From a virus, in the IMG/VR virus record IMGVR_UViG_3300005688_000028, positions 27,634 through 91,633 of that record: a DNA stretch of 64,000 nt. One strand, 5' to 3'. The notes beneath the pieces were generated by a model. The model worked only from the letters and a program-made list of their open reading frames with translations, did not search any database and was not told the DNA's origin. Below, one piece after another: positions 3,612 to 36,523 of this stretch. The position numbers were made by a program, and so were the translations under genes. Positions within the stretch are counted from its first letter, which is position 1; every line of letters starts with the position of its first letter.

Positions 3612-3810
3612 TGAGGGGAGGGGTGCATGAGTGGATGCACCCCGAACTGACGCGCTTGTGAGCGGCCTGTGGTGCGGGTCCTGGCATAATCGACACGGGC
3701 CTTGTCGTTTTCGGTTGCAGGGTCGAAGCAGATCGGCGACAAAGGGACATCGGCAGCGAGGGAAACACTCCCCAGGTCGGACCCGGTTGCAGCCGGGAGG
3801 AGCAACGACC

Positions 3811-16478: not shown

Positions 16479-16504
16479 GGTCTCTCTCCCTGGGTTCGTC
16501 TGGG

Positions 16505-17266
16505 TCACGCCGTGAAGCCGAAGGTCTGCGCGATCTGCGCCACCTCACCGGCACTCGTGGTCAGCTCCTCGACCTTGCTGATGGCCTTGTGCAGCTTGTT
16601 GGCCTGGGCCACGTCGGCACCGGCGGCGCGCTGCTTCTCGAAGAGGAAGTCGGCCAGCCGGCGGCGGTTGATCGGGGCCTTGTTGAGCTCACCCTTGCCG
16701 TCGCCCGCGTGCGGGATGGCCTCGAAGTCATCCGGTCGGACGCCGCGGAAGTCGCCGCGCGGACCCTTGATGAGCGCCTCGATCTCGTTGAGGCGGGCGA
16801 GCACGGGAGCGATGTCCTGCGCGCCGCCCTTGGCGAGCTGCTTGGTGACCTGCTGCGCGAGCGCCTTCGTGAGATTGCCCGCGGCGGCGATCTGGCCCTT
16901 GAGCAGCCCGATCTCCTTCTTGAGCGGCGCCACCGCGCTCTCGACGGCCGCGTTGACGGCCGCGCCGAGCGCCTTGCTCATCTCCTCGTCGCCGCCGTCG
17001 TCCTCGTCGGGCTCGCCGTACTCGGGCTCGTCGTCGTCGTCCTCACTCTCGTCGCCATCGGGCTCGGAGTGCGACGCCTTGTTCAGCGCCTCGGCCCACT
17101 CGTCGGCGGCCTGGTCGAGCGTGGTCACCTCGAGCCCGAGGTCGCCCTGGTCCGGGGTGATGGTGCCCTTCGCGAGCGCGCTCACGACCTCGCTTTCGAT
17201 CTTCTCGTCATCGAAACCGAGACCCGCCAGCGCCGTGCGAAACTCCGTCTCCGTCTTCGTGCTCAT
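16505..17266 (-). CDS. Capsid scaffold protein
   Basis: Acidic/helical, between protease and capsid, nine [LM]xK[AG] sites. Confidence 0.8.
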   Translation of the reverse strand: MSTKTETEFRTALAGLGFDDEKIESEVVSALAKGTITPDQGDLGLEVTTLDQAADEWAEALNKASHSEPDGDESEDDDDEPEYGEPDEDDGGDEEMSKALGAAVNAAVESAVAPLKKEIGLLKGQIAAAGNLTKALAQQVTKQLAKGGAQDIAPVLARLNEIEALIKGPRGDFRGVRPDDFEAIPHAGDGKGELNKAPINRRRLADFLFEKQRAAGADVAQANKLHKAISKVEELTTSAGEVAQIAQTFGFTA

Positions 17267-17279: not shown

Positions 17280-18014
17280 TCACAGCGCCGCGATGCGCTC
17301 GAGCGCCGCGACGAGGGTTCGTTCGGGCTGCCTGCTGAGCAGGCGAAGCGCCTTGAGGTGAGCCGTCGGAATGCCCTCGGTGAGCGCGAGTCGGCGCTGA
17401 ACCTCGGGGTCGTAGGCGAGCCTCATGGCGGCTTTCATGAGGTCGGCCGGCAGTCCGGCGGGCATGCCCATCTGAGCCCCGAAGGCCGCTGCGAGCGGCA
17501 TCGCGAAACTCGACGGATTGCGCGGGGCGGCGTCGATTGCCACCGTGCGGATCGTGCAGCGCGTGATGACGTTGCCCCGCATCTCGTTGATGGAGCCCTC
17601 GACGCTGAAGCCGAGCCCCTGCCCGCGCGGGCCTTTGCAGAGGGCTTGGTGCTGCGCCCGGACCTGCTGCGCGAGCGGCAGATCCTTGAGCAACACGACC
17701 TCGATCATGTTGCCCTTGACGCCCTTGAAGAGCCCGAAGGTCCGCTTGACGCCCTGGGCGCAAACGCGGTCCGCTGAATAGGGGTGCTTGTAGTGGACGA
17801 CGCCGCGCTGGTCGTACTCGGTCCAGTCCGCGCCGTCCTGAAGCAAGACCTGGCCGTCGGCGTCCAGAAACTCGCTCGTCGCGAGCCCCTTGAGCAGCCA
17901 CGCCGGGTCAATCTCGCCCGGCCCCAATGCCTTCTGAAGCGCCTCCTCGGGAAGCGCCTCACACTCGCCCCAGAGGAGCGGGAAGGTCATCGTGTCTGTC
18001 GCCATGGCAACCAT
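17280..18014 (-). CDS. Prohead maturation protease (HK97/herpes fold)
   Basis: G.AT.E.LD.DGQ..LQDG.DW, YKH, LGFSVEG, VAI...P.NP motifs. Confidence 0.9.
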   Translation of the reverse strand: MVAMATDTMTFPLLWGECEALPEEALQKALGPGEIDPAWLLKGLATSEFLDADGQVLLQDGADWTEYDQRGVVHYKHPYSADRVCAQGVKRTFGLFKGVKGNMIEVVLLKDLPLAQQVRAQHQALCKGPRGQGLGFSVEGSINEMRGNVITRCTIRTVAIDAAPRNPSSFAMPLAAAFGAQMGMPAGLPADLMKAAMRLAYDPEVQRRLALTEGIPTAHLKALRLLSRQPERTLVAALERIAAL

Positions 18015-18070: not shown

Positions 18071-21000
18071 TTACGCCTTGAGCGAGCCCTTCCAGAGCGT
18101 CACGAACGCGCGGAGCGCCTTCGTCATCTTGGCCTTGGGCGTCTTGGCCTCACGCTGCTTCATGTGGCTCTCCGCGGTGCTCGGGCTCATGTTGCGCTCG
18201 GGGTTCTTGTAGAGCACATCCTTGACGGCTTCGCGGAGGTAGCGGGCGGCCTTGTCGTGGTCGCCCGCCGCGTGGAGCTCGGCGGCCTTCTTCGTGTGCT
18301 CGTGCGCGTCAAGGCGGTCGTGTTCCTTGCCTTTGAGGCCGTAGCGCTCTTTCGCCTCGGCGACGCGGTCGGCGTGGGATGGGGCGGGCGTGGCCTCGGG
18401 CTTTCGCTCGACCTCGGGGGCTTCGCGAAGTGGCGGCAGCCGATCGGGCTTCGGTGACGAGGACGGCCACATGGCTTGTGCCGTCGCTGGTCTTTCGCGA
18501 AGTGGCGGGGTCCTGCCCGCGCTATCCTGCTTCAACGTCCCGGGGCGGTCCGGCTTCTGCGCGGACTCCACCGCCTTCGGCTCGGGCTTGTCGGCCTGCT
18601 TCGCCGCATGGGTCTTCACGGACTCGTCGCGGTCGACGTCAGCCTTGGGCTTCTGCGGCATCTCGCCCCGCGCCTTCAGCTCTTTGATGCCCCGGTGCAG
18701 CGTCTCCAGCTCGCGGTCCTCGCTCGCATACGGCGTCCCGGGCCGGCGCTTCTGCTCCTTCTGCGCAATGGCGATCTGGTTGTCGTGGTCGCCGATGGCG
18801 TTGGCGCCCCATGCCGAGTCATGGCTGTCATGCTTGGGGTCGGTCAGCGCCGCGTACGCGAAGTCGGCGTCGGCGCTTCGCTTGCTCGGCGCGGGGCTCT
18901 GCGCGGCCTGGGGCTTCTCCGTCTTCGCAGACGGCTCGTTGGGGTCGTCTCCGGGCTTGAACGCCGCGATCGTCGCGTCGCCGTATGGGCCGCGCTTCGT
19001 TCCGAGCATTCCGGGCGGAAAGTTGCCGCGAGAGCGATTGATCATCCATGGGAGGCCGGGCCTCTTGGTCCACACCACATGCGACGCCTCATGGCCCGGC
19101 CCCATGTCCTTCGGATGCACGGCGCGCGGATGGGCCTTCGTGGCCTCGTCGGCCTGACGGATGTCTTCGTCGGACCAGTGTTCATGGATCTGCCCGGTGC
19201 GCTTGTCCGCCTTCGGCTTCTCGACCTTGGACTTCTTCGGCTTGTCCGCCGGCGCCTCGATCTTGTGCCCAACCTTCGCGGCCTCGGCCCGGATCTTCTC
19301 CGCGCCCTTGTGGTTGCCCGCCGCGACGGCCTCGCCATGCTCACGCGTCAGCTTCGCCTTGTGCGCGTCGAGAGCGCCCTTGTGGTGCTCGGAGAGCTTC
19401 GCGGCGAGCTCGTCATGGGTCATCTTGACCTTCTTCCCACCGCTCGAGTGCGAGACATGCAGCTTGCCGTCCTTGACTCCATGGATCGTGTAGTGGCCCG
19501 CGCCGTGGGCGAAGCTGGCGCCCTCTTTGAAGTGCTCGGCGTTGTGGACGCCGCCCCCGTGCTGGACGCGGTAGAAGTAGCGGTAAATCTGCGCGCCCTG
19601 GCTCCCGTCTTTCTTCGTGCGGTACTTGCCCGTCGGGACTTTTTTCAGAAACGGCCCTCTGGACCCCGCCTTCCACAGCGCCGGCCCCACGAAGAGGCGT
19701 GCCAGCTCGGAACGCATCTCCACGACCTCGGCCCCGCGCGGCGTGATGAGAGCGCCACCCTTCGCGAGCGAAGCGCCCCATGCGAACTCGCCCAGCTTGC
19801 TCGCCATCGGGACCCAGGTGCCCTTGCCGAGCAATCGCTGCCAGAATCCGCGCTTCTTCTCGCCCACGGGGCGGCCCTTGTGGTCGCGGTATTCCGCACC
19901 ATCCTTGACCTGCGTCTTGCTCCAATACTTCCCCGTCTTGGGGCTCGCTTCGGGCGCGACCGAGAGGCCGCCCGCCTTGCCCTGGTGCTCGGCTTGGTGT
20001 CTGTCGTAGTCCGCGCGTGGCATCTTGCGCTTGTACTTGTCCCCGGGCTCGTGGATGTAAACGTGTTCCTTGCCCACGCTGATGTGTGCGTGGCGCGTCT
20101 GGTGGCGCCCATCGGGATACCAACTTTCCCACCCGTTCCCGACGCGCTTGTGCCACCCGCCGTGCTTGCTGTTCGGAATCGGCGTGAAGCCGGCCGGAGC
20201 GCGCTGTCCCTTTTCCATCGGCTTGCCCTCCATGATGTCGCCGAGGTCGATCACCCCGTCCTCGCCCGGCACCAGCTCGCCATCGGCCCAGAGCAGGCTG
20301 TCGTGAGCGGTGTTGTCCCCGGTGCTCAGCGCCTTCTTCATCGCGATCCCGTCCTTCGCGAGCAGCGCCCGCACGTCGTTGGCCGTGATCTCCTGGCCGC
20401 TCACACGAATCTTCCAGTCCTGCGCCGGGTTGAGCCGATAGCTCACATAACTGGACGTCGGAAGGTGCTGGCCCAGGATCTCCTTCGCCAGCGTGATCGG
20501 GGCCTTCGTGGTGGGTCGGTGCTCGCCGTTCTCGGCCGGCTCGAGCTCCACCGAATGCACGCGTACCGCGTGGACGTAGATCGTCCCCGGCTCGGGCGGG
20601 TTCTCCTTCGGCCCGGTGTAGTTGGTCTCGTCGCCCCGGTAGACGTAGGCGCCCCGGACCTTCTTGCCGTCGATCTCGAGCGGCCTCAGTCCGGTCTCGC
20701 GGTCGTGCTCGCGGGCGAGGCTGCGCTCCAATGACTCGCGCATCTCGCGGAGCGCCGTGTCGATGTGCTCTTGCGTGATGGGGATCGGCGTCCCGTCCTT
20801 ATCCCAGCCCGCCGACTTCAGAGCCTTCTCGACGAGGCTCTTGGGCATCGTGTCGAGGGCCTTGTAGGAGTCTTGGAGCATCTGGCCGTAGTCGAAGCCG
20901 AACACGACCTGGTCCTGCACCTTCGCGTCGCCGTAGACCTTCTTCTCGGCCCCGCGCCCCGCCTCCTTGCCGACCTTCTTGACCGTGACGGCCATGAAGC

Positions 21001-22312
21001 GCTCGGGGGGCTGGTCCTTGACCCAATGGCCCAGCGGATAGCCCGTGAAGTCCACCGGCACGTCCTTGGGCCGCGGCCCCCACTCCTCCCACGGCTTATT
21101 GCCATCGCCACCACCCCCCGAAGAGCCACCACCGCCCGCCGGGGGCTTCGGGGGCTCAGGAGGCTTCGCCGAGTCGGCCTTCGGTGCCTCGGGCATCTTC
21201 TCCTCGACCTTCTCCTCGGCCGGGAGCGGAGGCGGCTCCGTGTTCGTCGGGACACCGCGCGCCTTCATCTCGGCAAGAATCCGGTCGACGTGCTTCTGCG
21301 TCCCGTACTTCTTCGCGTCCCTCAGCTCGGCGTGAAGCCTCGCGGCGACCTCAGTCTTGCGGGTGTCGATCTTGGCCCCGTGGTGGGCCTTGAGGCGGGT
21401 CGCCAGCTCGTCGTGGGTCAGGTGCTCCGTGACGCCCGGCTTGCCCGAATGTGTCACCTTCAGCTTGCCGTCCTTCACGGCATGGATGGTGTACTCGCCG
21501 CGCTCATGCGCGAACGTCGCCCCGGCCTTGAAGTCGTCCCTGTTGTCGACGCCGCCGCCCTGGTCGACCCGGTAGAAGTAGCGGTAGATCGGCGCGCCGG
21601 CCGACCCGTCTTTCTTCGTGCGGAACTTGCCCGTGGGGACCTTCTTGACGTAGGTGCCACCGACGGCCCCCTTGTGCTTCATCAGCGCGTCGGGCCGGAA
21701 GAGGCGATGCAGGTCCAGCGGAAGCGCCATGACGCCGTGGCGGTAGCGCGCCCCCTTCACCATGGACGCATCCCAGAGGGCCGCGCCGAACGATTCGTCG
21801 AGCGGCACCCACACCGCGCCCGGCTGGTCCGGGTCAAGCTGGCGGGCGACGCCAGCGGTCAGGAGCGCGTCGCCGGTCTCGACGAAGCTCACCGGCTCAC
21901 CGCCCGGCATGCCGTCTTCGAGGTGCGAGCGGAGCATCCACGCCGCCTTGGCGTGGGCCACGGCATGGCGGGTCATGAGGTCCAGGGTCGGGACGTCTCG
22001 CTCGCTCGCGAGGGCGAGCGCGGCGCAGTCCGCCTCGAGCCCGGAGCGGACCGTCGCGAGCATCGAGAGCATGGCCTGTGTGTCATCGGGAAGGGCCGAC
22101 GCACCGGGGATGGCTGTCACGCCCAAGATGACGCGGACGCCCTTCTGCCGGATGCGCTCGGCGACCTCGTCGACCATGTCGCCCAGCGCCTCGTACTCGT
22201 CGCCGAAGAGGCCGTGGAGCTGCGCGAACGTGGGGCCGGTGACGTTCCAGTGGAACGACTGCGCGAGGTCGCGCGCGGCGATGAGCTTCGCGAGGATGGT
22301 GTCGAGAGCCAT
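18071..22312 (-). CDS. Polyvalent putative internal virion protein: N-terminal Dps/ferritin domain plus two YRYFY modules
   Basis: FHWNVTGPTFAQLHGLF..DEVAER..WMLRS (Dps); two KKVPTGK..YRYFY modules; many LxK[AG] sites. Confidence 0.85.
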   Translation of the reverse strand: MALDTILAKLIAARDLAQSFHWNVTGPTFAQLHGLFGDEYEALGDMVDEVAERIRQKGVRVILGVTAIPGASALPDDTQAMLSMLATVRSGLEADCAALALASERDVPTLDLMTRHAVAHAKAAWMLRSHLEDGMPGGEPVSFVETGDALLTAGVARQLDPDQPGAVWVPLDESFGAALWDASMVKGARYRHGVMALPLDLHRLFRPDALMKHKGAVGGTYVKKVPTGKFRTKKDGSAGAPIYRYFYRVDQGGGVDNRDDFKAGATFAHERGEYTIHAVKDGKLKVTHSGKPGVTEHLTHDELATRLKAHHGAKIDTRKTEVAARLHAELRDAKKYGTQKHVDRILAEMKARGVPTNTEPPPLPAEEKVEEKMPEAPKADSAKPPEPPKPPAGGGGSSGGGGDGNKPWEEWGPRPKDVPVDFTGYPLGHWVKDQPPERFMAVTVKKVGKEAGRGAEKKVYGDAKVQDQVVFGFDYGQMLQDSYKALDTMPKSLVEKALKSAGWDKDGTPIPITQEHIDTALREMRESLERSLAREHDRETGLRPLEIDGKKVRGAYVYRGDETNYTGPKENPPEPGTIYVHAVRVHSVELEPAENGEHRPTTKAPITLAKEILGQHLPTSSYVSYRLNPAQDWKIRVSGQEITANDVRALLAKDGIAMKKALSTGDNTAHDSLLWADGELVPGEDGVIDLGDIMEGKPMEKGQRAPAGFTPIPNSKHGGWHKRVGNGWESWYPDGRHQTRHAHISVGKEHVYIHEPGDKYKRKMPRADYDRHQAEHQGKAGGLSVAPEASPKTGKYWSKTQVKDGAEYRDHKGRPVGEKKRGFWQRLLGKGTWVPMASKLGEFAWGASLAKGGALITPRGAEVVEMRSELARLFVGPALWKAGSRGPFLKKVPTGKYRTKKDGSQGAQIYRYFYRVQHGGGVHNAEHFKEGASFAHGAGHYTIHGVKDGKLHVSHSSGGKKVKMTHDELAAKLSEHHKGALDAHKAKLTREHGEAVAAGNHKGAEKIRAEAAKVGHKIEAPADKPKKSKVEKPKADKRTGQIHEHWSDEDIRQADEATKAHPRAVHPKDMGPGHEASHVVWTKRPGLPWMINRSRGNFPPGMLGTKRGPYGDATIAAFKPGDDPNEPSAKTEKPQAAQSPAPSKRSADADFAYAALTDPKHDSHDSAWGANAIGDHDNQIAIAQKEQKRRPGTPYASEDRELETLHRGIKELKARGEMPQKPKADVDRDESVKTHAAKQADKPEPKAVESAQKPDRPGTLKQDSAGRTPPLRERPATAQAMWPSSSPKPDRLPPLREAPEVERKPEATPAPSHADRVAEAKERYGLKGKEHDRLDAHEHTKKAAELHAAGDHDKAARYLREAVKDVLYKNPERNMSPSTAESHMKQREAKTPKAKMTKALRAFVTLWKGSLKA

Positions 22313-22313
22313 G

Positions 22314-24185
22314 CTAGATCCTCATGGGCATGATGATGTGGCGCTCGCCGTCGGTCCGGTGAAGGTCGAGCGGGCCATACTGGCCGCCGTGCGACACCCG
22401 AAGCGTCACCGGCCCCTTGTGGCCGACGAGCGCGTCTTGCAGGTACTTGGCGTTGACGGCGATCTGACCCTTGTCGCTGCCGGCCATCCAGTCGCCGCCG
22501 TCCTTGGCCGCCTTGTGCGTCTTGGCGTGGACCTTCAGGTCATCCGGGGCCTGGTGCTCGTGATCGGCGTGAGTCCGCAGGCTGGCGTGGAAACCTCCGT
22601 CGGCCGTGTGCGTGAACAGGATCTGCGGCGGGATCGACTTCGCGACCTTGTTGGTCTTGTGGTGCTCCTTCGCGGCGTCGATGAGTGCCTGGAGCGACTT
22701 GGTATCGAACGAGTGCTCCGAGGCCGCGAAGTCGGTGGTCGGGACGATGACGGCCCGGTGCCCGTCGGTCGCATACGCGAACTTCCCGTCGGCGTGGACG
22801 CCCGCGAGGTTCGGGCGCGTCGAGTCCTTACTCGCAAAGGTCGTGAGGCGCTTGACGTCCGCCTCTTTGGGCGTGTGGTCCTTGTGGGCATGCACGGGCT
22901 TGTCGGGAAGCTCTTTGGCCGCCTCGACGGCCTTCTTGACCTTGTCGACCGTGGCATCGGAGACGGACGAGGGGCGGGCTTTGGACTCATCCGCCTTCGG
23001 GGTGGTTGTTCCGCCTCGGCGGAACAACGACGACACGACCTCATCAGGCTCGCCAGACTCGTCATCACGAGACGCTTGGCTCTCTCCGTGCAGCTTACTG
23101 AATCGCGCACTCTCCGCCCCGCTCAGGGCGTAGAAGTGAGATCCGTCCGGTGCCAGCGCGACGGGTCCGCCGTTCCTGTCGGCGGGGCGGTATCCTGCCT
23201 CATGCAGTGCCCCGACCATTTCGGCGCGGGTCATCTGCTGGCCCTTGAACCGAACCTCTTTTTCGAGGTGGGTGTCGGAACGCTTCTGGCGCGCAGACTC
23301 AAGAGCCTTGTCGCGCTTCGCACGGGCCTCCTCTTGCGCCTCGGGCGACTTGCGGCGGGCGACCTCGCGCTCCTTCTCCTTCCTGGCCTCATCACGCCTG
23401 CGGCTGAACTCACCCCCGGAGATATGGTCGGCGATGGAAGCCACGCCGAACTTGACGCCAAGCTCCTTCGCGGTCGCCCGCATGGCGGGGCCATCAATAC
23501 CAGCCGCGCCCCGGCTCGCGGCGTCCGTCATGGACTTTGCTCGCTTGGACACCTCTTCGTCCGATAGGCCGGGCTGCGTGCGCTTGATGTGCTTCGCATA
23601 GACCTTCTCGAAGGACGCCCGGGCGCCCTCTGCCCCCTGCTCCACATGCCCCGCGTCAGCCGCTCGCTTCTTCGCCGCGGCGATCGTCTTCTCCGAGGCC
23701 CCATGCTTCTTGGCCTCCTCCAAGTCGGCGAGGGCCTGCTTCTTGGCCTTCTCGCGCTTCTCGGCGACCTTGGCGTCGTCCTCCTTACGGGCCTCGGCGT
23801 GCTCGCGATGGAGCATCGTGGCGAGGGCGTCCTTGTGGATTTTGTGCTCGGTCCCGGTCTCGTCGTGACGCACAGTGACGTGCCCGTCGCCATGGTCGTG
23901 CGTGACCTCGAAGTGCCCGTGCTCGCCCCCGTCCTTCATCCTGAAGGCGGCGCCCACCTTCATCTCGTCGTGGTGGCCGAGCCCGGAGCCGCCGATCGTG
24001 CGGTAGAAGTACCGATACCGCTGCTTGCCGGTCTTCGTGACCTTGCCCGGGATGGGGACCCTGCGCAGGTACTTGTGCGCCTTGCCCTTGGCAAGTGCGC
24101 TTAGGATGGCCTTCGCCATGAAGGCAGGAACGGTGCGCTCGGGCGCGAGCGCCTTCACCAAGGCTGCCAGTGCTTTCGTCGACAT
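22314..24185 (-). CDS. Putative internal virion protein: YRYFY module plus C-terminal beta-clamp-like domain
   Basis: HKYLRRVP..YRYFY; FASKDSTRPNLAGV..ATDGHR..NAKYLQDAL..IIMPMRI. Confidence 0.85.
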   Translation of the reverse strand: MSTKALAALVKALAPERTVPAFMAKAILSALAKGKAHKYLRRVPIPGKVTKTGKQRYRYFYRTIGGSGLGHHDEMKVGAAFRMKDGGEHGHFEVTHDHGDGHVTVRHDETGTEHKIHKDALATMLHREHAEARKEDDAKVAEKREKAKKQALADLEEAKKHGASEKTIAAAKKRAADAGHVEQGAEGARASFEKVYAKHIKRTQPGLSDEEVSKRAKSMTDAASRGAAGIDGPAMRATAKELGVKFGVASIADHISGGEFSRRRDEARKEKEREVARRKSPEAQEEARAKRDKALESARQKRSDTHLEKEVRFKGQQMTRAEMVGALHEAGYRPADRNGGPVALAPDGSHFYALSGAESARFSKLHGESQASRDDESGEPDEVVSSLFRRGGTTTPKADESKARPSSVSDATVDKVKKAVEAAKELPDKPVHAHKDHTPKEADVKRLTTFASKDSTRPNLAGVHADGKFAYATDGHRAVIVPTTDFAASEHSFDTKSLQALIDAAKEHHKTNKVAKSIPPQILFTHTADGGFHASLRTHADHEHQAPDDLKVHAKTHKAAKDGGDWMAGSDKGQIAVNAKYLQDALVGHKGPVTLRVSHGGQYGPLDLHRTDGERHIIMPMRI

Positions 24186-24231
24186 GCTCACCTCGTCAGG
24201 CCCGCATTGTGGGCTGGTGGCGGGGCGGGGG

Positions 24232-24241
24232 GTGAGCTTTC
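24232..24241 (-). promoter_or_regulatory. Late promoter motif (copy 3)
   Basis: GAAAGCTCAC-N20-CACAAT; overlaps upstream TGA stop. Confidence 0.75.
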
Positions 24242-27200
24242 ATCGGAGGAGTCGGGCGAGGCGCCCGAAGGCCCGGGTGGCCTTCTCCAGCCGTCCGGCC
24301 TCGTGGTCCCGCACCATGGCGATGACACCAGCCCAAAGATCATCGCCTCGTTCGGCCTTTTGATGCTGGCGACCATCGGGCTTCGTGATGATGATGTTGG
24401 TATGGTCGCCGCGCGAGTCGAGACTTAGGCGCGACCCGTCGCTCAGGCCGACCTCGTTCTTGACCCCAAACACAAGCCGCAACTTGTCGGGCGTCAGAGG
24501 TAGTGCCTTGCCGTCACTGTCAACGAGATGCACGCCTTTCGGCGATCTTGGGGCCTTCGGCTTCACGGGCTTCACGGGCTCGACCTTGATGGCGCGACCC
24601 TGCTCGTTGACTCGCCCCTCGACATAGGCGGCCCTGCGAGCCTTTGCCGCCCTCAGCTCGGCGACCGCCTCGACGTGCCGCTTCGCGGCGTCGATGCTCG
24701 CGTCCATGCGGCGCTCAGCGGACCTTGTCGAGCCTCCGCGCTGCCCGGTCGGCCTCATGCTCCCGGCGCCGAGCGGGAAGGCTTCGGCCATCGCCTTCGA
24801 GCGCTGGGTGTCGAACGGGCCTCCCCGGGCCACCTCGCGCTCGAGGCGGGCGATCTTCTCGTCGAGCTTCGCGGTGTGGGCGGGGTCGTGGCCCTCGGAC
24901 GGGACCTTGGCGTGCTCTGGAAACAGATCATGAATCTCCAGAGCGCCCCGCACCGCCATGGCCTCATCCGCGCGCCCCGCGAGCGCGTTCCCTGTCTGCG
25001 CGCGGCGCTGACTCTGGCTGGTCATGGATGTAGTTGCCTGAATGGCGGCGTGATGCTGCGATGCGTGCTTTTGGGCTTCTCTCGTGGCGACACCGAGCAT
25101 TTTTTGCAGTTCGTGCTTGGTCTTGGACCTAGCAAGCATCTTCATCCACGGAGAATACCAATCATCGTAGTCAACATCGTCGCGGCCGTACTTCCTGGCA
25201 CCCCCGCCCGATGTTGCGGGGTCGCGGCCCTCGGACGGCGTGACCGTGGCGACGGGAGGCGCCTTCGTGACCACCACCGTCCGCGTGGCGACCCCCGTGG
25301 AGTTGTCGCTGTCCTTGAACGAGCCCTCGGGGTTCTTCTCGCTCGTGCCGCCGTTGGCCTCGAGCCATTCGCGGAACGCCTGCGCCTTCTTGTCCGAGCG
25401 GAAGAACGGCCCTTCTGACATGATGGCGACGAGCTTACCGCCCGGCTTCAGGTTGCGCTCGAAGGCGTGTCGGACGTGCTCGATGTCCTGGCCGTCATCG
25501 AAGGGCGGGTTCATCACGACCTTGTCGTAGGTCTCGGCGTGATCGGTGGCGTCGTGGCCGACCACCTTGTGGCCCTTGAGGCTCAGCACGTCTCGGAGGC
25601 CGCTGTGCTGCTCCAGAACATGCACGTCGCCACCCTGCTCGCGCGCGAGGTCGGCCAGCGAGCCCTTGCCGGCCGACGGCTCGAGGACCTTCTCGCCGGG
25701 CTTGATGTCGGCTAGCTGCATCACGCGGTCTGCGAGCGGCTTTGGGGTCGGGAAGTAGCCGGGGATCTTGAGCCCCACGAGGGCGCGCTCGGCCGCCTTG
25801 ATGGGGTCGGCCTTGGGCTTGCCGGCGCCGCGCGCCAGCTCGACGTACTCGCGAAGGGCGGCGCGAAGCTGCGGGAGCGACTTGATCCCCATGCCCTCGC
25901 TGGCGCGCTTCCAGGTGGTCAACTGGTCGCGCACGTCATCGGCCGCGAAAGTCTCGACGCGGCGCAAGCGACCGGCGTCCGACAGCGCTTTGAAGTCTTC
26001 GCGCTCCTGCTCGGTGCTGGCCTTCACCTGCCAGTCCCGTTCGCCCAACTGAGCGATGCGCTTGAGCACGCGAGCCGCTGCCTGCTTCGCGCCCGGAACG
26101 TCTTTGAGCGCCTGCGCGAGCCCCTTCAGGTTGTCGCGATGAACGGACGGCTCGGGCGGGCGGGCGTGCTCGATGTCCTCGGGCGTGACCGCGCGGTGGC
26201 TCGTCTCGTTGTGGTCTGCCTTGCCGCCCGCCTCGCGCGTCGCTCGGTCTCGGTCGTACTTCGCTTGGCGCAAGATGTTGTCCAGCATCTCGACGTGGGC
26301 GCGCGTCTTGATGCCCCAAAGGTGCTTCGTGGACCCGGCCTCTTGCGCGTCGGCGATGAGCCTCATCCGGCTCGCGACCGCCTGCTCACCCATGGCCTGC
26401 GCTTCGGCGCTCCCCGCCATGTTGGCGCGACGGGCGGTGTTGACCTTGCGGTCCGCGCTCAGGCTCTCTTGGGCTCGGGCATGGGCGTTGTCGGCCTGCT
26501 CTCGGAGTCGGGCGGGGGCGTTCCCGTGGAGCGGGCCGGGCTTCTCGGGCTCGGTGACGGGCTCGGCGGCCTGTGCGGCCTCTCCGAAGCCCCCGAACTT
26601 GTCCGCGAACTGGCGGGCTGCGGCATCGGTCTTGAAAACGAAGCCCGGGATTGCGCCGTTGCCCCGAAAGCTCGAGTAGTAGCCGCCGATCGACTTCGCG
26701 TGAGCGTTGGCCTTGGCGTATTCGTCCGGGGCGAGGCGGTCCGCAAGCTGCACGGTCCAGATGTTGTGGCCGTGCTTCGTGTGCTTCCCGGGGATCACCT
26801 TCGCAGTCGTCTCAGTAGCGAGCGCCGAGCCCGCAAGGGTGGTGCGCTCTTGCGCGGCCTTTGCGCGCGCCGCATGGGCGTCTTCGTGTTCTTTCTGGGC
26901 CTGCGCTCGCGCGTCCTCGGCCACGAGCTCGTCATAGCGAACGCGCTGCTCAGGCGTGAGGCTGCGTTCGCCCTCGCGCGAGAGCGAGATCCGTGTTTTG
27001 AAGTCGGCGAGCGTCTTGGGCTCGATCACCGCTCCGATACGGGCCTTGTGCTCCTCGATGGCCTTCTTGCGACGTGCGGAGTAGGCCGCGATAGCCTCGT
27101 CGGTGAGCTTGTCGACCTCGCGCGTGATTGCGGCGTCGTAGGTCTCGCTGAATGGCGACCACTGCGTTGACGACGAGACGTGGAAGCTGCCCAGGATGCT

Positions 27201-28529
27201 GTGCCATGCCGATTCGACAAGCCGGTCCTTCTTCTCGTCGGCGTAGGCTCGACTACCAACGATGCGCTGCAACTCGGGTTTGGTGAGCTTGGCGAGCTGC
27301 GCCATGATAGCCGCCTTGTTCGCCACCGTTGCATCGAACAACCGGCGCACCTCAGCGGCAGTGATGGTGGCGTCGTTGATGCGCTGAACCATGGCGTCCA
27401 CGCCGATGGACTCCATCAAACCTTGAGCGGTCTTCTCATCGGGGGCGGGCTTCTTTGGGGCCTCCCTCTTCACCTCCCGCGCAGCCTCCTCGGCCTTCGT
27501 CGGCAGCCCCAGCCGCGCCCGGTGCTTGTCGGTCCCGTACACCGCCGCCTCCGCGCGGTCGGCCTCGAGCCGCTTCGTCGCTCGCTCCTTCTTCTCGGCC
27601 TCGTGCTTCTCGATGCCGGCCCGGTGCTCGGCATGCAGCATCGCGGAGAGCTCGGCCTTCGTGACGGTCCGGCTCTGGCCGTTCTCGTCGTGCTCAATCG
27701 TCAGCCGGTCCCCGTCCACGGCCTTGATGTGCCAGTGGCCGCCGTGGGCCATGAAGCCCGCGCCCTCGACAAAGTGCTCCTGCGCGTGGACGCCGCCGGA
27801 CCCGCGCGCGACGTGGTAGAAGTAGCGGTAACGGGGCGTCCCCTTCTTCGTGAACTTCCCGGGGATCGGCACGCGCTTGATGTAGCGGTGCGCCTTGCCC
27901 TTCATGAGCTGCGAGAAGAACGCGAGGCGCCCGTAGGCTTCGGGGAGGAGGAGCGAGCCCGGCGGAAGGCCCGCGAGCGCCTTCTTGAGCGCCTTCCCGG
28001 CGTTGTTGGGGTCAGCGATCTTGGCGCGGAAGTCGTCGATGCTCATGGTCGTGTGTCCCCCGTAGAAGCCGGGCTTCGTGTACTGCTTGCGGTAGCAGGC
28101 CAGCGCCTCGGCGACGCTCGGGAAGCCCAGCATGACCTTCTGCTCATCGTGCTCGCCGGTCTCGGGAACCCGCTGGTCCACTACTACGACCACGTCAGAC
28201 TCGAGGGCGTCACCGACGTAGACGTCGAGGCGGTCGCCATCCATGCCGCGGGCTCCCATGACACCAGCGGCCCCGCGGGCGTGTGACCTCACCTCGCCAT
28301 AGTGGGCCTGCATCGTGACCCGCCACGGCGTGCCGTTGGCGTCGACACCCTCGCGCACGTCGCCCTTGCGCTGCTCGATGTCGATCGGGATGCCCTGGAA
28401 GACCAGCGAGGCCACGAACGGGAACTCCGAACGGTTCGGCGACGGCGGCGGCATGAGGCCGGGCGAGGTTTCGCCGCGGCGGACGAGCAGGGCAGAGAGG
28501 CGGCGCGCGGCGTGGTCGAAACGGTCCAT
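24240..28529 (-). CDS. Polyvalent (DarB-like) protein: iPPase-like domain, YRYFY module, N6-adenine methyltransferase
   Basis: IEQRKG.VR.G.D..G..W...M.AHYG..DGD.LDVYVG..DEQKVMLGF; YFPTP, VLEPSAGKG, VMNPPF; start set 33 nt after late motif. Confidence 0.85.
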   Translation of the reverse strand: MDRFDHAARRLSALLVRRGETSPGLMPPPSPNRSEFPFVASLVFQGIPIDIEQRKGDVREGVDANGTPWRVTMQAHYGEVRSHARGAAGVMGARGMDGDRLDVYVGDALESDVVVVVDQRVPETGEHDEQKVMLGFPSVAEALACYRKQYTKPGFYGGHTTMSIDDFRAKIADPNNAGKALKKALAGLPPGSLLLPEAYGRLAFFSQLMKGKAHRYIKRVPIPGKFTKKGTPRYRYFYHVARGSGGVHAQEHFVEGAGFMAHGGHWHIKAVDGDRLTIEHDENGQSRTVTKAELSAMLHAEHRAGIEKHEAEKKERATKRLEADRAEAAVYGTDKHRARLGLPTKAEEAAREVKREAPKKPAPDEKTAQGLMESIGVDAMVQRINDATITAAEVRRLFDATVANKAAIMAQLAKLTKPELQRIVGSRAYADEKKDRLVESAWHSILGSFHVSSSTQWSPFSETYDAAITREVDKLTDEAIAAYSARRKKAIEEHKARIGAVIEPKTLADFKTRISLSREGERSLTPEQRVRYDELVAEDARAQAQKEHEDAHAARAKAAQERTTLAGSALATETTAKVIPGKHTKHGHNIWTVQLADRLAPDEYAKANAHAKSIGGYYSSFRGNGAIPGFVFKTDAAARQFADKFGGFGEAAQAAEPVTEPEKPGPLHGNAPARLREQADNAHARAQESLSADRKVNTARRANMAGSAEAQAMGEQAVASRMRLIADAQEAGSTKHLWGIKTRAHVEMLDNILRQAKYDRDRATREAGGKADHNETSHRAVTPEDIEHARPPEPSVHRDNLKGLAQALKDVPGAKQAAARVLKRIAQLGERDWQVKASTEQEREDFKALSDAGRLRRVETFAADDVRDQLTTWKRASEGMGIKSLPQLRAALREYVELARGAGKPKADPIKAAERALVGLKIPGYFPTPKPLADRVMQLADIKPGEKVLEPSAGKGSLADLAREQGGDVHVLEQHSGLRDVLSLKGHKVVGHDATDHAETYDKVVMNPPFDDGQDIEHVRHAFERNLKPGGKLVAIMSEGPFFRSDKKAQAFREWLEANGGTSEKNPEGSFKDSDNSTGVATRTVVVTKAPPVATVTPSEGRDPATSGGGARKYGRDDVDYDDWYSPWMKMLARSKTKHELQKMLGVATREAQKHASQHHAAIQATTSMTSQSQRRAQTGNALAGRADEAMAVRGALEIHDLFPEHAKVPSEGHDPAHTAKLDEKIARLEREVARGGPFDTQRSKAMAEAFPLGAGSMRPTGQRGGSTRSAERRMDASIDAAKRHVEAVAELRAAKARRAAYVEGRVNEQGRAIKVEPVKPVKPKAPRSPKGVHLVDSDGKALPLTPDKLRLVFGVKNEVGLSDGSRLSLDSRGDHTNIIITKPDGRQHQKAERGDDLWAGVIAMVRDHEAGRLEKATRAFGRLARLLR

Positions 28530-28549
28530 GCGGCGCAGCATCGCCGGGC

Positions 28550-30490
28550 CTACGCGGCGCGGTGAGCTTTCGTGCGCAGGCGCTTGAGCGCGAGGCGGGC
28601 GAAGGTGGCGAGCGAGCCCTTGTAGAGCTTCGACAACGCCGTCTCGGCCGCGTCTCGCGAAGCGAAGTACCAAGCCTTAGCATCCGGGTCCCAGCGGGCG
28701 CCCTTGGCCTTCAGCGCGTCCTTGTGGGCGAAGGTGTTACCGGCCACGCCCACGCGACCGCGCGACAACGGAACCATCCTGAGACCGTGCTTCTCGCCAG
28801 GCGTTGAGGCGCTGCCGCTCGGGGCCTGCGGTGTGGCTGGCTTGGGCGCAGGATTGGACGCGGCCTTGTCGCCACCACCCTTGGCCTTGTCGGCCTCGGT
28901 GAGTTCGGCCCGTGGCTGCGGCGGAACCTTGGCCTTCTGGGCCTCTTTGAAGCGGAATATCGCCTTGTCCACCTCGGGCGTCAGGGTGGCCACCTTCAGG
29001 ATGGTCCGGTCGTCGTCATATCCCAGGGTCTTGGTCGCATAGACCTTGTCGTTCTCGCGGTCGATGTAGAAGGTCCGGCCGCCGGACTTGGCGGACTCGC
29101 CATCGGTGAGGCGCTCGGCGTTGGCGGGCGGCCTCCATCTGCCGTTCTCGTCCGAGAGGCCGCCGCCGATGTCGACCTTGTGAGCCGGAACGACGCGGTC
29201 CAGCGCCTCGCGGTTGCCGGTGATGGCCCGGTCCAACAGCGCCCGGTCGGGATGCCACTGCGAGCTTTCTACCGCCTGTCTCGCATGATAGGCCGCATCG
29301 TAGGGCAACCGCTTGGACTCGTCTGCGATGTAGGCCTCGGCCTCCGCGATGTTCCGCTCGTGATTGGCCTTGAAGTAGGACGACTCCTCTTTCTCGAGCG
29401 CCTTGCGTTGGCGTTCGATGAACAGCTTTGCCAGAGCGATTCCGTCCTCACGCTGGATCTCAGCGGCGGGCTTGTCGGCGACTCGGTCGAACAGCTCCTT
29501 GTTGGCGTCGTAGTCGCGAAGCCTGTCTCGAACCAAGGTGAGGCTCGGGATCGCACGCATCCGCGTCTCGTGGCTCACGTCGAGGTCGCGCCAAGAGCCA
29601 TCCGCCGCCGCGATGCTCTCGTAGAGCTTCTTGTGCTCTGCGATGGCGTTCTTCGTGCTCTCCCATTCGCGATACGTCCGAGCCTCTTCCGGCGTCGCGC
29701 GGCGCATGGTGGCGGTCACCACCGCATGAGCATCCGCGAGGTGGTAGTCGCCCACGTCCTCCGACCACTCGCGGTCCTGCTTGGAAAGGCGCTTGGTCCG
29801 ACTCCCGACCACGACCCAGATGGACCCGTCCTTGCGCTTCTGGAAGTCTCCCGGCTCCGGCCCGGTGTCTTTGAACTGGACGGTCTCGTACTTCTCCGAC
29901 GCTGGCTTCTGCGCCTCCGCAGCCTCTTTGCGCTGCCTCAATTCGTCCGCAGACAGAAGCTCATCCTCGGTCGCTCCGAAGCCCCGCGCCCGCTTCTCCG
30001 CGGCTTCGATCTGCTTCGCTGTGCCCAGCTTGCGGACCTCGTCGAGCTCGGCCAGGGCGCGCTTCTTCTTCGCCTCGCGGTCCTTCGCGGTCTCGGCCTC
30101 CTCGGCCTTGATGCCCTCGGCATGGTGGGCTTGCAGTCGCCTCACGAGCTCGTCTTTGTGGATGCGCTCCACCTTGCCCGACTCGTCGTGCTTCACCGTG
30201 AGGTGGCCGTCCTCGTGAACGTCCTCGATGTGGTAGTGGCCTCGCTTTCCCTCGTGCTCACCCGCGAAACCAGCGCCCTTGACCCAGTGCTCGGCGTTGT
30301 CGAGACCCTTGCCGCCCTTGGCCCCGGTGAGCTTGTAGAAGTAGCGATAGCGCTGCTTGCCGCTCTTCGTGAACTTGCCGGGGATCGGAACGCGCTTGAT
30401 GTACTTGTGGTTGGCGCCCTTGATGAGCGCCATGAACATGAGCCGGCGGGCGACTCGCGGGTTGATCGGAAGCCAGATCCCCATGCTCAT
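28550..30490 (-). CDS. Putative internal virion protein: YRYFY module, unknown cargo, C-terminal DUF5710-like motif
   Basis: HKYIKRVP..YRYFY; TFAHKDALKAKGARWDPDAKAWY. Confidence 0.8.
   Translation of the reverse strand: MSMGIWLPINPRVARRLMFMALIKGANHKYIKRVPIPGKFTKSGKQRYRYFYKLTGAKGGKGLDNAEHWVKGAGFAGEHEGKRGHYHIEDVHEDGHLTVKHDESGKVERIHKDELVRRLQAHHAEGIKAEEAETAKDREAKKKRALAELDEVRKLGTAKQIEAAEKRARGFGATEDELLSADELRQRKEAAEAQKPASEKYETVQFKDTGPEPGDFQKRKDGSIWVVVGSRTKRLSKQDREWSEDVGDYHLADAHAVVTATMRRATPEEARTYREWESTKNAIAEHKKLYESIAAADGSWRDLDVSHETRMRAIPSLTLVRDRLRDYDANKELFDRVADKPAAEIQREDGIALAKLFIERQRKALEKEESSYFKANHERNIAEAEAYIADESKRLPYDAAYHARQAVESSQWHPDRALLDRAITGNREALDRVVPAHKVDIGGGLSDENGRWRPPANAERLTDGESAKSGGRTFYIDRENDKVYATKTLGYDDDRTILKVATLTPEVDKAIFRFKEAQKAKVPPQPRAELTEADKAKGGGDKAASNPAPKPATPQAPSGSASTPGEKHGLRMVPLSRGRVGVAGNTFAHKDALKAKGARWDPDAKAWYFASRDAAETALSKLYKGSLATFARLALKRLRTKAHRAA
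28562..28571 (-). promoter_or_regulatory. Late promoter motif (copy 4)
   Basis: GAAAGCTCAC-N19-GATGCT-N7-ATG. Confidence 0.75.
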
Positions 30491-32100
30491 TCTCCCTCGT
30501 CGAGACCCGGCTCGCCCTGGCCCGGCAGCCCAGCATCCATGCCCGGCACGCCCTCACCACCCTCACCTGGCATGCCGCCCATCGCGGCCGGGTCCTCGGT
30601 AGGCGTGAAGGTCCCAAGCGCCTGTAGGACGGTGCTCGACAGCGGCACGCTCAGCGCCAGAATGATTCGGTCGCGCGTCTTGTCGTCGACCTCGATCTTG
30701 TTGGCCTTGAAGTAAGCCTTGTCGATGACGGGCTTCCCGAGGCGTGACCGGCTCTCGTTCGACGAGAAGATCCCCTCGGCCTTCTTCTCGAGTTCGATCT
30801 GGGAAAGCTCCGACTCGGCGCCGTCGCCCGTGAAGCGGAACGCGAAGTCCTCATCCCAGCGGTAGATCAGGCTCTCGTTGATGCTGTCCTCGAAGGCCGT
30901 CAGCATCGGGCGCAGGCCGAACATGCGCGAGAGCTGGATCTCGTCCTTCGGGTTCGCGCCCGACAGCGGGGCGCCCGCGCCCTTGTACTCGGGCAGGCCC
31001 ACCTCGACGGGACGCATGTTCCAGTTGGCGGCCACGACCATCAGCTTGATGAGCATGAGGTCGGTGAACTCCATGTCCTTGTTCGGGTGGGCGAGGTCGA
31101 GCTTCTCGATCCGCTCGCGGCTCGCCTCTGTGCCCCCGGGGCTGAACAGCGCCATCGCCATGCGGTGCGCGTTGTTGATGCCCTTGAGCTGCGCCGTCAT
31201 CATCGCCTTGAAGGCGAGCCAGGTCTCTTTGTCGTAGTTGGCGAAGACGTTGAGCATGGTGCTCGCGTGCGTGCCGTTCCGAAAATAGACCTGATTGTAG
31301 TCGTCGGCCTCGATGTAGGCTTGCAGCGCGTCGTAAGCCTGCTGGATCTCCGGGTAGCCATACCCGAAGACCTCCATCTGCGTGCGCGGGCGGCGGACCA
31401 CGCTCAGGATCTCGTCCTCGTGCCACGTCGCCACGACCCTATCGAGGCTCGGGAGCACCTGCACGAAGCTCCCCGAGTGATAGTTGAACTCGCCCGGCCC
31501 CTCCTGCTTCTTCGGCCGCCCTCGACGCACCCACGCCGCATCCAGCGCCCGGAAGGCCCGGGGCCGCCCGCCGTTCTCGTACTGGATTTCGGCGATGGCC
31601 CAATCGTAGGTCAGCGAGTCGTCCGCGAGCATGCCCATCGTGCGATGGAAGGGCTGCAAGCGGTTGAGCATCTTCTGGATTTCCGCGAACTCCTTGCGCG
31701 CGCCCTGGCTCACCTTCGCGTCGGGGTCTCGCATCCCGAGCTGGTATCCCGGCGTCCACTGGTCGCGCGCCGGCCGGCAGTGCTCGACGAACTGCTGCTG
31801 GCGCTTGCTCTTGAAGGGCGCGCAGATACTCCGGTCGGCCGCGGCGCGAAGCGTTCGGAACGGGAGCCAGCCCGCGCCCGGGTGGCCCATGACGGGCTTG
31901 TCGCCCGAGAAGAACTTGTATTCCTCGTAAGGGTCCCAATCCGCGCCCTTGAAGGCCGCATCGTCGCCCTCGTCGGAGCGGGTCTTCAACGGGCTCTCGG
32001 GCTCGCCCCGGACCGACATCGCAGACTCGCGGCGCGCCTTGAGAAGCGGGTTCTCAGCGTCCGAGCCAACGAGCAACCTGTGCAGAAACGAACGCGCCAT
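30487..32100 (-). CDS. Portal protein
   Basis: DSLTYD...E, GYGYPEI, YN..YF.NG, KDMEF, GLRPML..ED.IN, NE.R..LG motifs. Confidence 0.92.
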   Translation of the reverse strand: MARSFLHRLLVGSDAENPLLKARRESAMSVRGEPESPLKTRSDEGDDAAFKGADWDPYEEYKFFSGDKPVMGHPGAGWLPFRTLRAAADRSICAPFKSKRQQQFVEHCRPARDQWTPGYQLGMRDPDAKVSQGARKEFAEIQKMLNRLQPFHRTMGMLADDSLTYDWAIAEIQYENGGRPRAFRALDAAWVRRGRPKKQEGPGEFNYHSGSFVQVLPSLDRVVATWHEDEILSVVRRPRTQMEVFGYGYPEIQQAYDALQAYIEADDYNQVYFRNGTHASTMLNVFANYDKETWLAFKAMMTAQLKGINNAHRMAMALFSPGGTEASRERIEKLDLAHPNKDMEFTDLMLIKLMVVAANWNMRPVEVGLPEYKGAGAPLSGANPKDEIQLSRMFGLRPMLTAFEDSINESLIYRWDEDFAFRFTGDGAESELSQIELEKKAEGIFSSNESRSRLGKPVIDKAYFKANKIEVDDKTRDRIILALSVPLSSTVLQALGTFTPTEDPAAMGGMPGEGGEGVPGMDAGLPGQGEPGLDEGE

Positions 32101-33537: not shown

Positions 33538-34437
33538 TCAGGCCGCAACCTCTCGCCCAAGCGCCGCATCGGCCCGCTTCGCGCCATCGACCATGGCCTC
33601 GATGGTCAGCCCCGCGGCGCCCGTCTCGAGCATCCTGCGCAGGCTCATCCAGCCCTGGAAGTTGGCGTGCCGGCCCTCGCACCTCACGGCGGGGTGCTCC
33701 AACGGCGACGCATGGGGAGGCTGCGGAGACCAGAGCCGCTGGAACAGGGCCACGTCCTCGGTGTAGCTCGACGGCTCGCCCAGGTGGTTGTCGTAGCTCA
33801 CCCGGGCGCACCGCGCGGCCGAGACCACCATCGCGAGGCCCGTGCAGTCGCCAAGCTCGTCGGGGCGCTCGCCCTCGCGGATGAAAGGCAGGTGGATGGC
33901 TCGGTCGACCACCGGCGCCCCCTCCATCGCCAGCCTCATCTCGCGCGCGAGCGCCTGAAAGGTCGGCTCGGCCGCCTCATGGTCTCGAAGGCCCGCGAAG
34001 TGCCCCCACTGGTCCTCGGTCATCGTCAGGACGGTGGAGATCGTCGCGAACGGCTCGAGGATGCGATTGGCGAACTGCTTGTGCGCGTCGAGCTTCGCGA
34101 GCGCCAGGGCGTGCCCCACGGCCGCATCGCGCGCGGACCGCCACACCTTCACCGCCTCGGCATACTGGCCCCCCTCCAACGGCGCCCCAGCCTGCATGCC
34201 GCGCTTATTCTTCGCGAAGGGCGGCAGCCACGTCGACCGCGCCACCTTGGCGGCCATCTTCTCGACCGGGATGGCCCGGCTCGAGCTGCTATTGCGGCTG
34301 AACATCCGGTGCGTCAGCGCCTCGGCGTGGATATATCGCGGATATTCCAGCGCGAAGGTCACGATGCCGGGCTCGTCCCGCAGCCCTCGCGAGCGCCAGA
34401 CGTGCGGGATGGTGATGCCGAGGTCGAGCGCGCTCAC
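33538..34437 (-). CDS. thyX: FAD-dependent thymidylate synthase
   Basis: THRMFSRNSSSSRAIP, HKQFANRILEPF, SAARCARVSY, HASPLEH. Confidence 0.9.
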   Translation of the reverse strand: MSALDLGITIPHVWRSRGLRDEPGIVTFALEYPRYIHAEALTHRMFSRNSSSSRAIPVEKMAAKVARSTWLPPFAKNKRGMQAGAPLEGGQYAEAVKVWRSARDAAVGHALALAKLDAHKQFANRILEPFATISTVLTMTEDQWGHFAGLRDHEAAEPTFQALAREMRLAMEGAPVVDRAIHLPFIREGERPDELGDCTGLAMVVSAARCARVSYDNHLGEPSSYTEDVALFQRLWSPQPPHASPLEHPAVRCEGRHANFQGWMSLRRMLETGAAGLTIEAMVDGAKRADAALGREVAA

Positions 34438-36493: not shown

Positions 36494-36523
36494 ACCCACC
36501 TCTCGCATCGGGGTCGCCCGACC

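Follow-up and report, generated by a model that had tools for sequence, protein, structure and literature searches.

Polyvalent proteins of phages are giant multidomain proteins that join unrelated activities; they are encoded late or with the virion genes, and their packaging and injection have been predicted (Iyer et al. 2017, J Bacteriol; PMC5512222). Their processing by an embedded zincin-like metallopeptidase (MPTase) was proposed as a frequent, but not obligatory, theme (PMC5512222). Prohead proteases recognize the motif L/I-x-E in T4 (gp21) and A-x-E in phiKZ and SPN3US, and remove N-terminal propeptides from many head proteins (PMC10052503, PMC9024508). In phage P1, DarB carries a 30-residue N-terminal capsid-targeting signal (PMC9024508), and DarA-Hdf pairs, on the inner surface of the capsid, contact both capsid and DNA and are absent from emptied heads (PMC12810830). 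Here we analyzed a window of 64,000 nucleotides, bases 27634-91633 of the 91,633-bp IMG/VR virus record IMGVR_UViG_3300005688_000028, from an uncultivated phage. Between its portal and prohead protease genes lie four genes for polyvalent proteins, called here cargo proteins, which share a leader and a module of ~130 residues. These proteins probably become part of the prohead, are cut by an HK97-like protease after the Lys of [L/aliphatic]-x-K/[G/A] (the slash marks the predicted cut), and are carried in the head for delivery with the DNA.

The four open reading frames (ORFs) all lie on the minus strand and translate cleanly:

28550..30490, minus strand: cargo gene 1, a 646-aa ORF with leader, module, ~430 unassigned aa, DUF5710, LYK624/G and a 22-aa basic amphipathic tail
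24240..28673, minus strand: cargo gene 2, a 1477-aa ORF with inorganic pyrophosphatase (InPase), leader, LMK258/G, module, a conserved ~550-aa region, methyltransferase, LEK1464/A and a 13-aa tail
22314..24191, minus strand: cargo gene 3, 625 aa, with leader, module, ~260 unassigned aa and a beta-clamp C-terminal-like domain, without a tail
18071..22312, minus strand: cargo gene 4, 1413 aa, with Dps, two leaders, module, ~470 aa, linker, module, ~380 aa and tail

The database representatives are 644 aa long for cargo 1 and 1433 aa for cargo 2. They place the probable true starts at M3 in cargo 1 and cargo 3 and at M45 (nt 28541) in cargo 2. With the M45 start, the overlap of cargo gene 2 with its upstream gene is gone. 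The leader of cargo 3 has the sites LVK13/A, MAK27/A and LAK35/G. Cargo 4 has MVK186/G in leader 1, LMKHK214/G in leader 2, K830, K851 and K881 in the linker (all within 55 residues), MTK1398/A, and LWK1408/G in the tail. The C-terminal tails read MTK/ALRAFVTLWK/GSLKA in cargo 4, LEK/ATRAFGRLARLLR in cargo 2 and LYK/GSLATFARL... in cargo 1. Cargo 3 has the clamp-like C-terminus IIMPMRI.

The pentapeptide YRYFY occurs five times, and the surrounding ~136 residues align over their full length with 31-56% pairwise identity. A profile of the five copies recovered all five in the genome with E-values of 1e-49 to 1e-60, so the module is repeated far beyond chance. The five copies lie as follows:

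30014..30421, minus strand: module copy 1, cargo 1 residues 24-159, after the leader helix and LIK24/G
27495..27902, minus strand: module copy 2, cargo 2 residues 258-393
23682..24089, minus strand: module copy 3, cargo 3 residues 35-170
21251..21658, minus strand: module copy 4, cargo 4 residues 219-354, with a degenerate His pattern
19250..19657, minus strand: module copy 5, cargo 4 residues 886-1021

Copies 4 and 5 are the closest pair, 56% identical and with runs of near-identical DNA, which points to an intragenic duplication. Most of this layout had been described in an earlier reading of the DNA letters (the original prediction). It had put four genes with five module copies between the portal and the prohead protease, each copy directly after LIKG, LMKG, LAKG, LWKA or LMKHKG. 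It had also seen an amphipathic C-terminal tail after such a site in three of the four proteins, and had called the cargoes unrelated. All of this held, with coordinates agreeing within ~40 nt. The neighbors were identified as portal (phrog_12/Phage_portal) and prohead protease (phrog_1028), and Pfam, PHROG, PDB and NCBIfam searches verified that the cargoes are unrelated.

The domains attached to the modules are Dps/ferritin, InPase with methyltransferase, a beta-clamp-like domain and DUF5710, and they have no relation to each other. Four of them were delimited by profile and structure-database matches:

28017..28403, minus strand: InPase of the polyvalent-protein type, cargo 2 residues 91-219 (Pfam PF18823, E 1e-31)
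25260..25841, minus strand: DNA methyltransferase-like domain, cargo 2 residues ~945-1138 (phrog_15406, phrog_18947, phrog_6263)
22317..22892, minus strand: beta-clamp (DnaN) C-terminal-like domain, cargo 3 residues ~434-625 (phrog_947, E 5e-10)
21914..22309, minus strand: Dps/mini-ferritin domain, cargo 4 residues 2-133 (Pfam Ferritin, E 3e-12; PDB Dps chains, best E 1.8e-13)

The InPase domain also has a match in a portal protein of solved structure (PDB 9b41_L, 'gp19 Portal'; E 1e-9), where it covers residues 638-741 in the C-terminal part. InPase is therefore carried in the virion of another phage, as a C-terminal extension of the portal. Other assignments were weaker. Cargo 2 scored just below the family cut-off of Pfam Methyltransf_23 (E 7e-6), the clamp-like domain matched TIGR00663 dnaN weakly (E 4e-4), and the NCBIfam Dps models scored under their cut-offs for cargo 4. 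At least eight representatives of the module family share the end ...H.IMPMR[IL] with cargo 3, which marks the clamp-like fragment as a recurrent and presumably packaged cargo. A C-terminus composed of DUF5710, L-x-K-G and an amphipathic tail, in this order, recurs in the family, for example ...GG.WD...K.W.VP....L..[IM]LKG/..., and is found in the window at 28643-28732 (minus strand).

The module matched no domain family, virion or non-virion, in Pfam, NCBIfam, PHROGs or PDB sequences. The best Pfam hit had an E-value of 0.018, to unrelated families, and the best PDB sequence an E-value of 1.5. There was no NCBIfam match and no PHROG match over the module, and a search of the ESM Atlas gave no usable match. 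The module was modeled with AlphaFold2 on an alignment of 22 sequences, with a predicted local distance difference test (pLDDT) score of 87 and a predicted template modeling score of 0.70. The model comprises a leader helix (11-24), a beta-hairpin (32-51, HKYIKRVP...YRYFY), a four-stranded barrel (74-111) and helices (112-155). The K-G pair lies in its least confident stretch (pLDDT 64 for a 10-residue block), between the leader helix and a core with a pLDDT of 95. Foldseek retrieved SH3/Tudor/PWWP/KOW-like barrels with a probability of at most 0.99 over 42-51 residues and a root-mean-square deviation of 2.1-3.0, at E ~0.1. VIA-align likewise gave small barrels, with a weak best Z of 5.0 over 64 residues. 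The modeled core thus weakly resembles a generic SH3/Tudor-like barrel, a common fold that singles out no particular relative. Among predicted viral structures, the top hit was a 'DdrB-like domain-containing protein' from an uncultured phage, which is probably a member of the module family itself.

An exhaustive search with a hidden Markov model (HMM) over 1.84 billion representatives, clustered at 50% identity, showed that the family is widespread. There were 588 representative clusters at E at most 1e-3 and 355 at E at most 1e-10; a protein word-index search with leader plus module found three weak relatives only. Copy numbers and lengths were determined for the best 146 of the 588 proteins. 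Among these 146, one module copy was found in 112, two in 21, three in 11 and four in 2, and lengths ranged from 143 to 3608 aa. The first module begins at most 60 residues from the N-terminus in 63%. Seven of the 146 consist of little more than leader and module; such solo forms are 143-260 aa long and, by analogy, resemble small basic internal proteins. The module is uniformly basic and rich in His, with a median isoelectric point (pI) of 9.7, 99% of copies above pI 8, and 9.2% His. Across 184 copies, at least 90% conservation was found for the Lys before the module, the Tyr of HKY, the Arg of RVP, R-Y-x-Y, a Gly, a Phe, G-H and two further His. The ~20 residues preceding each K-[GA] form a conserved element throughout the family, W.ELP...G..LW...L.K[GA].

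A Pfam census of 73 full-length members revealed which domains travel with the module: LPD1 (18), AAA_34 with Helicase_C_4 (10), ddrB-ParB (9), InPase (7) and Ferritin (4), as well as SNF2/ResIII/DEAD, KTSC, methyltransferase and 2H phosphoesterase. This is the phage repertoire of Iyer et al. 2017 (PMC5512222), and the four window proteins therefore belong to the polyvalent proteins. InPase, ddrB-ParB, LPD1, methylase, SNF2/Sno helicases and 2H are shared between the two sets. Like other members of that class, cargo 2 joins InPase to a methyltransferase, cargo 4 joins Dps to two module units, and the four genes lie among head genes, as do those of six related loci. Unlike the model with an embedded MPTase, no peptidase domain was found in the four cargo proteins at Pfam E at most 0.1, and the cut-site motif is that of the predicted substrates of the prohead protease. 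The leader-module cassette stands outside the LPD families imported into Pfam; it might equal an LPD that never entered Pfam, such as LPD4.

Linkage to head genes was assessed in six related loci with usable flanks (L001, L008, L009, L010, L011 and L012). Scans of viral contigs had yielded five related loci and a scan of 185,579 species-representative genomes two, with consensus-like members as query. A first scan of genome contigs with window-specific patterns had returned no relative. In the window, the late operon lies on the minus strand and is transcribed in the order terminase, portal, four cargo genes, protease, scaffold-like gene, major capsid gene, tail sheath:

36524-38242, minus strand: large terminase
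30487..32100, minus strand: portal protein, 537 aa (phrog_12, E 1.7e-26; Pfam Phage_portal, E 4.6e-16)
17280..18014, minus strand: prohead maturation serine protease, 244 aa, HK97/S78-like (phrog_1028, E 6.5e-8)
16505..17266, minus strand: scaffold-like protein, 253 aa, with an acidic tract, assigned by position and composition
14940..16508, minus strand: major capsid protein, 522 aa (phrog_752, E 9e-20)
7634-9628, minus strand: tail sheath

Module genes adjoin portal and/or capsid genes in 6/6 loci, at a GC content from 41% to 67%. In the four viral contigs L001, L008, L009 and L010, the module-bearing genes are directly beside the portal. The order is portal, 1791-aa module protein, S78 protease, scaffold and capsid protein in L001 (50% GC), and portal, module protein, 1117-aa protein and protease in L009. 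Two loci come from metagenome-assembled genomes (MAGs) and have the same head-gene arrangement: L011 is a contig of a Deltaproteobacteria MAG and L012 a prophage in a Treponema MAG. With a spirochaete locus of 41% GC among them, the cassette spans very different hosts and base compositions. The prophage-like head module of L012 has partial modules (NLEK/ALGHKYIKRVP...) and a capsid protein with an ALNK/A site.

The position of these genes is reminiscent of MuF proteins such as SPP1 gp7, whose gene also directly follows the portal and which fuse a conserved head-association domain to variable effectors. The module differs from them in its predicted fold and in being repeated within a polypeptide. 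The MuF domain (PF04233) had no match anywhere in the 91.6-kb genome, while control genomes did match. The cassette therefore holds the position that MuF-effector fusions occupy in other phages.

The motif L-x-K-[GA] was counted against expectations from composition-preserving shuffles, and was concentrated in the head genes:

Scaffold: 8 observed, 0.4 expected
Protease: 5 observed, 0.3 expected
Capsid protein (K46, K55): 2 observed, 0.4 expected
Portal (K21): 1 observed, 0.3 expected
Four cargo proteins: 11 observed, 5.4 expected
Head block, genome-wide count: 25 observed, 5.7 expected (Poisson P 2e-9), omitting the 646-aa cargo gene, which genome-wide gene calling dropped because of the ORF overlap
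Other 71 genes: 11 observed, 10.5 expected

The scaffold has nine [LM]-x-K-[GA] sites, eight of them strict L-x-K-[GA], and the N-terminal candidate site of the portal is PLLK21/A. In orthologues of the scaffold and the protease, down to 22-34% identity, motif lysines were conserved at 0.80-0.82 and the remaining lysines at 0.40-0.42. K33 and K196 of the scaffold and K28 of the protease were retained in every orthologue sequence. After the Lys (position P1'), G and A interchange among the scaffold and protease orthologues, as expected if selection acts on the motif and not on particular residues. In the capsid protein, LLK55/G of the window phage and NLNK29/A of L001 each lie 18-19 residues upstream of a shared GFS motif, and the capsid protein of L012 has a similarly placed ALNK22/A near its N-terminus. 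By sequence comparison, three distant phages keep this candidate site at a corresponding position.

The same signature frames the cargo. In the family, 179/186 module copies (96%) follow K-[GAS], and in these the residue two positions before the Lys is Leu in 70% and aliphatic in 98%. A site 7-34 residues before the C-terminus was found in 35% of family proteins, compared with a background of 10.7%. The tails after this site are of recurring amphipathic types, e.g. GPF..L..LL and ALR.F..L. L-x-K-[GA] thus behaves like a selected prohead-protease-site signature, concentrated in scaffold, protease, the N-termini of capsid and portal proteins, and cargo boundaries. Matches outside the head block, at genome positions 2390-3811 and window positions 57169-58638, look incidental. 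In HK97, gp5 is cleaved after Lys103. A search of the literature for prohead protease motifs specific for Lys gave no directly relevant paper.

The window protease itself had no Pfam hit. With the L001 protease, which passes the cut-off of Pfam PF04586 (Peptidase_S78), it shares 29% identity (E 3e-10). H77 and S137, the latter in GFSVEG, are invariant across nine sequences. The protease model was of low confidence (pLDDT 55), and its top folds were herpesvirus assemblins and T4 gp21 with weak E-values of 0.02-0.25. K28, K42 and K194 are candidate self-sites. K42, K97, K127 and K194 were discarded as support for the motif, because they are not conserved in the distant L001 and L009 proteases; K28 alone is.

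The scheme predicted here resembles that of T4 (the capsid-targeting sequence of the internal proteins IPI-III and Alt), phiKZ and SPN3US, in that a short N-terminal peptide ends in the prohead protease motif and the same motif occurs in scaffold, capsid protein and protease, with cutting inferred in our case. The internal proteins of T4 are small, basic and injected with the DNA. The cargo proteins had no PHROG or Pfam match to the T4 internal protein or Alt families, and there is no sequence relation between them. They also differ in that the residue before the cut is Lys instead of Glu and the protease is HK97/S78-like instead of gp21/S77-like. In addition, a folded module follows the site and is repeated inside polyproteins, and C-terminal tails are used as well. 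With the Dar system of phage P1, the locus would share large anti-restriction cargo of the methylase type, loaded via an N-terminal signal. In contrast, the capsid protein of P1 is cut after Glu120, and the P1 adaptors are separate proteins, whereas the module would act in cis. Short terminal peptides also direct proteins inside an HK97-fold shell in the case of the C-terminal tail of the HK97 gp4 protease and the cargo-loading peptides of encapsulins, and some encapsulins carry ferritin-like cargo. One cargo of the window, Dps, is ferritin-like too. Unlike encapsulins, the system described here belongs to a complete tailed phage, which has a portal, a terminase and a sheath. The C-terminal tails of the cargo proteins are preceded by a protease motif, differ in sequence and are putative shell binders.

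The cassette common to the four proteins is an amphipathic leader helix (W.ELP...G..LW...L.K/G) followed by the ~130-aa basic, His-rich module. A second leader type reads ...LPWW....DP..L.K/A, and many family members end with a second site and a short amphipathic tail. Leaders and/or tails may act as removable capsid-targeting peptides. The prohead protease would trim them and would split polyprotein-like ORFs into units, each starting with a module. The predicted products of the 1413-aa protein are Dps (1-186) and two module-headed units, and those of cargo 2 are InPase and a module-methylase unit. Cargo 1 and cargo 3 would give module-headed single units. Since every unit released from a multi-unit protein would keep its module, and solo forms exist, the module probably works after maturation. 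Given its constant positive charge and its generic SH3/Tudor-like barrel in the model, binding of a polyanion, namely DNA, is our best guess for its role, and would hold the cargo with the genome, in analogy to the basic internal proteins of T4 or the DarA-Hdf pairs of P1.

The module repeat, its family, the synteny with head genes and the enrichment and conservation of the motif are read directly from sequence. From them we infer packaging, cleavage, targeting roles, DNA binding and ejection; of these, packaging and processing of the cargo proteins appear likely. Several observations weigh against this picture. Some of the matches to the motif fall within folded regions, where a cut is unlikely: K71 in cargo 1, K339 in cargo 2 and, next to the catalytic Ser, K127 in the protease. 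The strong conservation of L-x-K-G-A-G-H-K-Y could mean that this stretch is a structural element of the domain, instead of or besides a cut site. The structural matches of the module to nucleic-acid-binding barrels are weak and generic (Z 5.0; Foldseek E ~0.1). The predicted Dps and InPase fragments carry no module, so the module is not required for every cargo. The basic module could bind the acidic tract of the scaffold equally well, and its conserved histidines hint at metal binding. Lastly, the phage is uncultivated and has no relative of its module or capsid protein among 50,697 deposited phage genomes.

Four other explanations were considered. The one we take most seriously, though we still doubt it, is that the module itself is the capsid-targeting domain and docks, during prohead assembly, either to the acidic scaffold tract or to the inside of capsid or portal. 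It would then have no role on DNA, and the leader would be a propeptide. The long Asp/Glu tract in the scaffold-like protein and its L001 counterpart speaks for this, as do the uniformly basic module and its usual place as first folded domain from the N-terminus. One such domain per polypeptide would be enough, yet the module is repeated after every internal site in multi-unit proteins. Its retention on each released fragment points to a role after cleavage, and the separately conserved leaders and tails, flanked by motifs, look more like removable targeting peptides. It is also conceivable, but unlikely, that L-x-K-[GA] before the module is an uncut helix cap and loop. The cargo proteins would then stay intact giant polypeptides, and the enrichment in scaffold and protease would reflect their own cleavage. 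L-x-K-G-A-G-H-K-Y is indeed conserved beyond the need of a bare protease site, and the polyvalent virion RNA polymerase (vRNAP) of N4 is packaged unprocessed (PMC5512222). However, the motif recurs at C-terminal tails, in linkers between units and at the N-termini of capsid and portal proteins, and the modeled site falls in a low-confidence loop between helix and core.

The His cluster (HKY, GH.H, HDE,.H) raises the question of a metal-binding or catalytic domain with its own activity, or with metal or pH sensing, in place of an adaptor. Three of these His are at least 90% and two more His, an Asp and a Glu at least 75% conserved in the 184 copies, and solo forms of the module would suit such a function. 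Against it, the two cargo 4 copies lack several of these residues (GE.T, HS), lost without loss of the module itself, small SH3/Tudor-like barrels are rarely enzymes, and no catalytic family matched the module. We consider this explanation improbable. Finally, methylase, clamp-like, Dps and pyrophosphatase domains could all act in the cytoplasm, and the proteins might be late replication or anti-defense proteins that lie in the head operon by chance. This is very unlikely, since the linkage to portal or capsid genes holds in 6/6 distant loci and the cargo proteins share the motif code of head-assembly proteins. Removable-looking tails are common in the family, and InPase occurs in a solved virion portal protein.

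The broader genome gave the following context. The record is classed in IMG/VR as having direct terminal repeats, with 21 bp as the longest exact terminal repeat found, and CheckV estimated the whole record to be 64% complete. GC content is ~67%. The phage is of the myovirus type and without close cultured relative. Against the 50,697 deposited phage genomes, P1 included, neither megablast of the 20-kb region nor tblastn of the capsid protein or of leader plus module gave a match. Among deposited phages, the portal matched only SPO1-like and other Herelleviridae-type portals, with ~27% identity. The scaffold-like protein has an Asp/Glu tract of ~30 residues (16970-17110, minus strand), and its L001 counterpart (L001 14921-15775) has one too. 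The basic module might pair electrostatically with this tract. Between the genes for terminase and portal is a thymidylate-synthase-like gene (33538-34437, minus strand; phrog_85, E 4e-58). A 590-aa gene (34736-36508, minus strand) without Pfam or PHROG match is the immediate downstream neighbor of the large terminase gene. Its immediate upstream neighbor encodes a 566-aa protein (38289-39989, minus strand) that carries a MazG-like PRA-PH domain at the C-terminus (Pfam E 1.6e-6).

The interpretation given in the original prediction was partly supported. Membership of the head genes, the motif and the diversity of the cargo stood. A DNA tether, also proposed there, would be a guess from the basic charge and the generic barrel of the module. 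The proposed HMM and synteny check gave 588 clusters and head-gene linkage in 6/6 loci, and the proposed structure prediction an SH3/Tudor-like barrel at pLDDT 87. K/[AG] as a protease site motif gained support from enrichment and conservation, and the family-wide domain census would fit the suggested plug-and-play chassis. The class of polyvalent proteins had been missed, which makes the concept less new. Both this class of virion proteins and the logic of a targeting peptide processed by the prohead protease are already known. What appears to be new is a widespread, unannotated leader-module cassette repeated as a unit marker, a Lys-type motif common to the head proteins, and processing without an MPTase. 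A more far-reaching version, in which giant polyvalent ORFs of this clade are true polyproteins, cut by the prohead protease inside the capsid between units marked by an address cassette, and the module is a new class of DNA-riding co-ejection adaptor, is put forward only tentatively.

Packaged effectors are otherwise indistinguishable from other large ORFs. If our interpretation is correct, a simple rule (leader, L-x-K/[GA], module, optional tail) would find them in metagenomic phages, and would give a name to a widespread unannotated domain family of at least 588 clusters at 50% identity. The capsid maturation protease would be an alternative to MPTase processing of polyvalent proteins. To load foreign proteins into capsids of the HK97 fold, the cassette would also offer a compact handle that works in cis, like the experimental tags of T4 and P1. 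Should the polyprotein and DNA-riding version be true as well, hundreds of uncultivated phage lineages would carry a general, programmable code for protein delivery that can be read from sequence.

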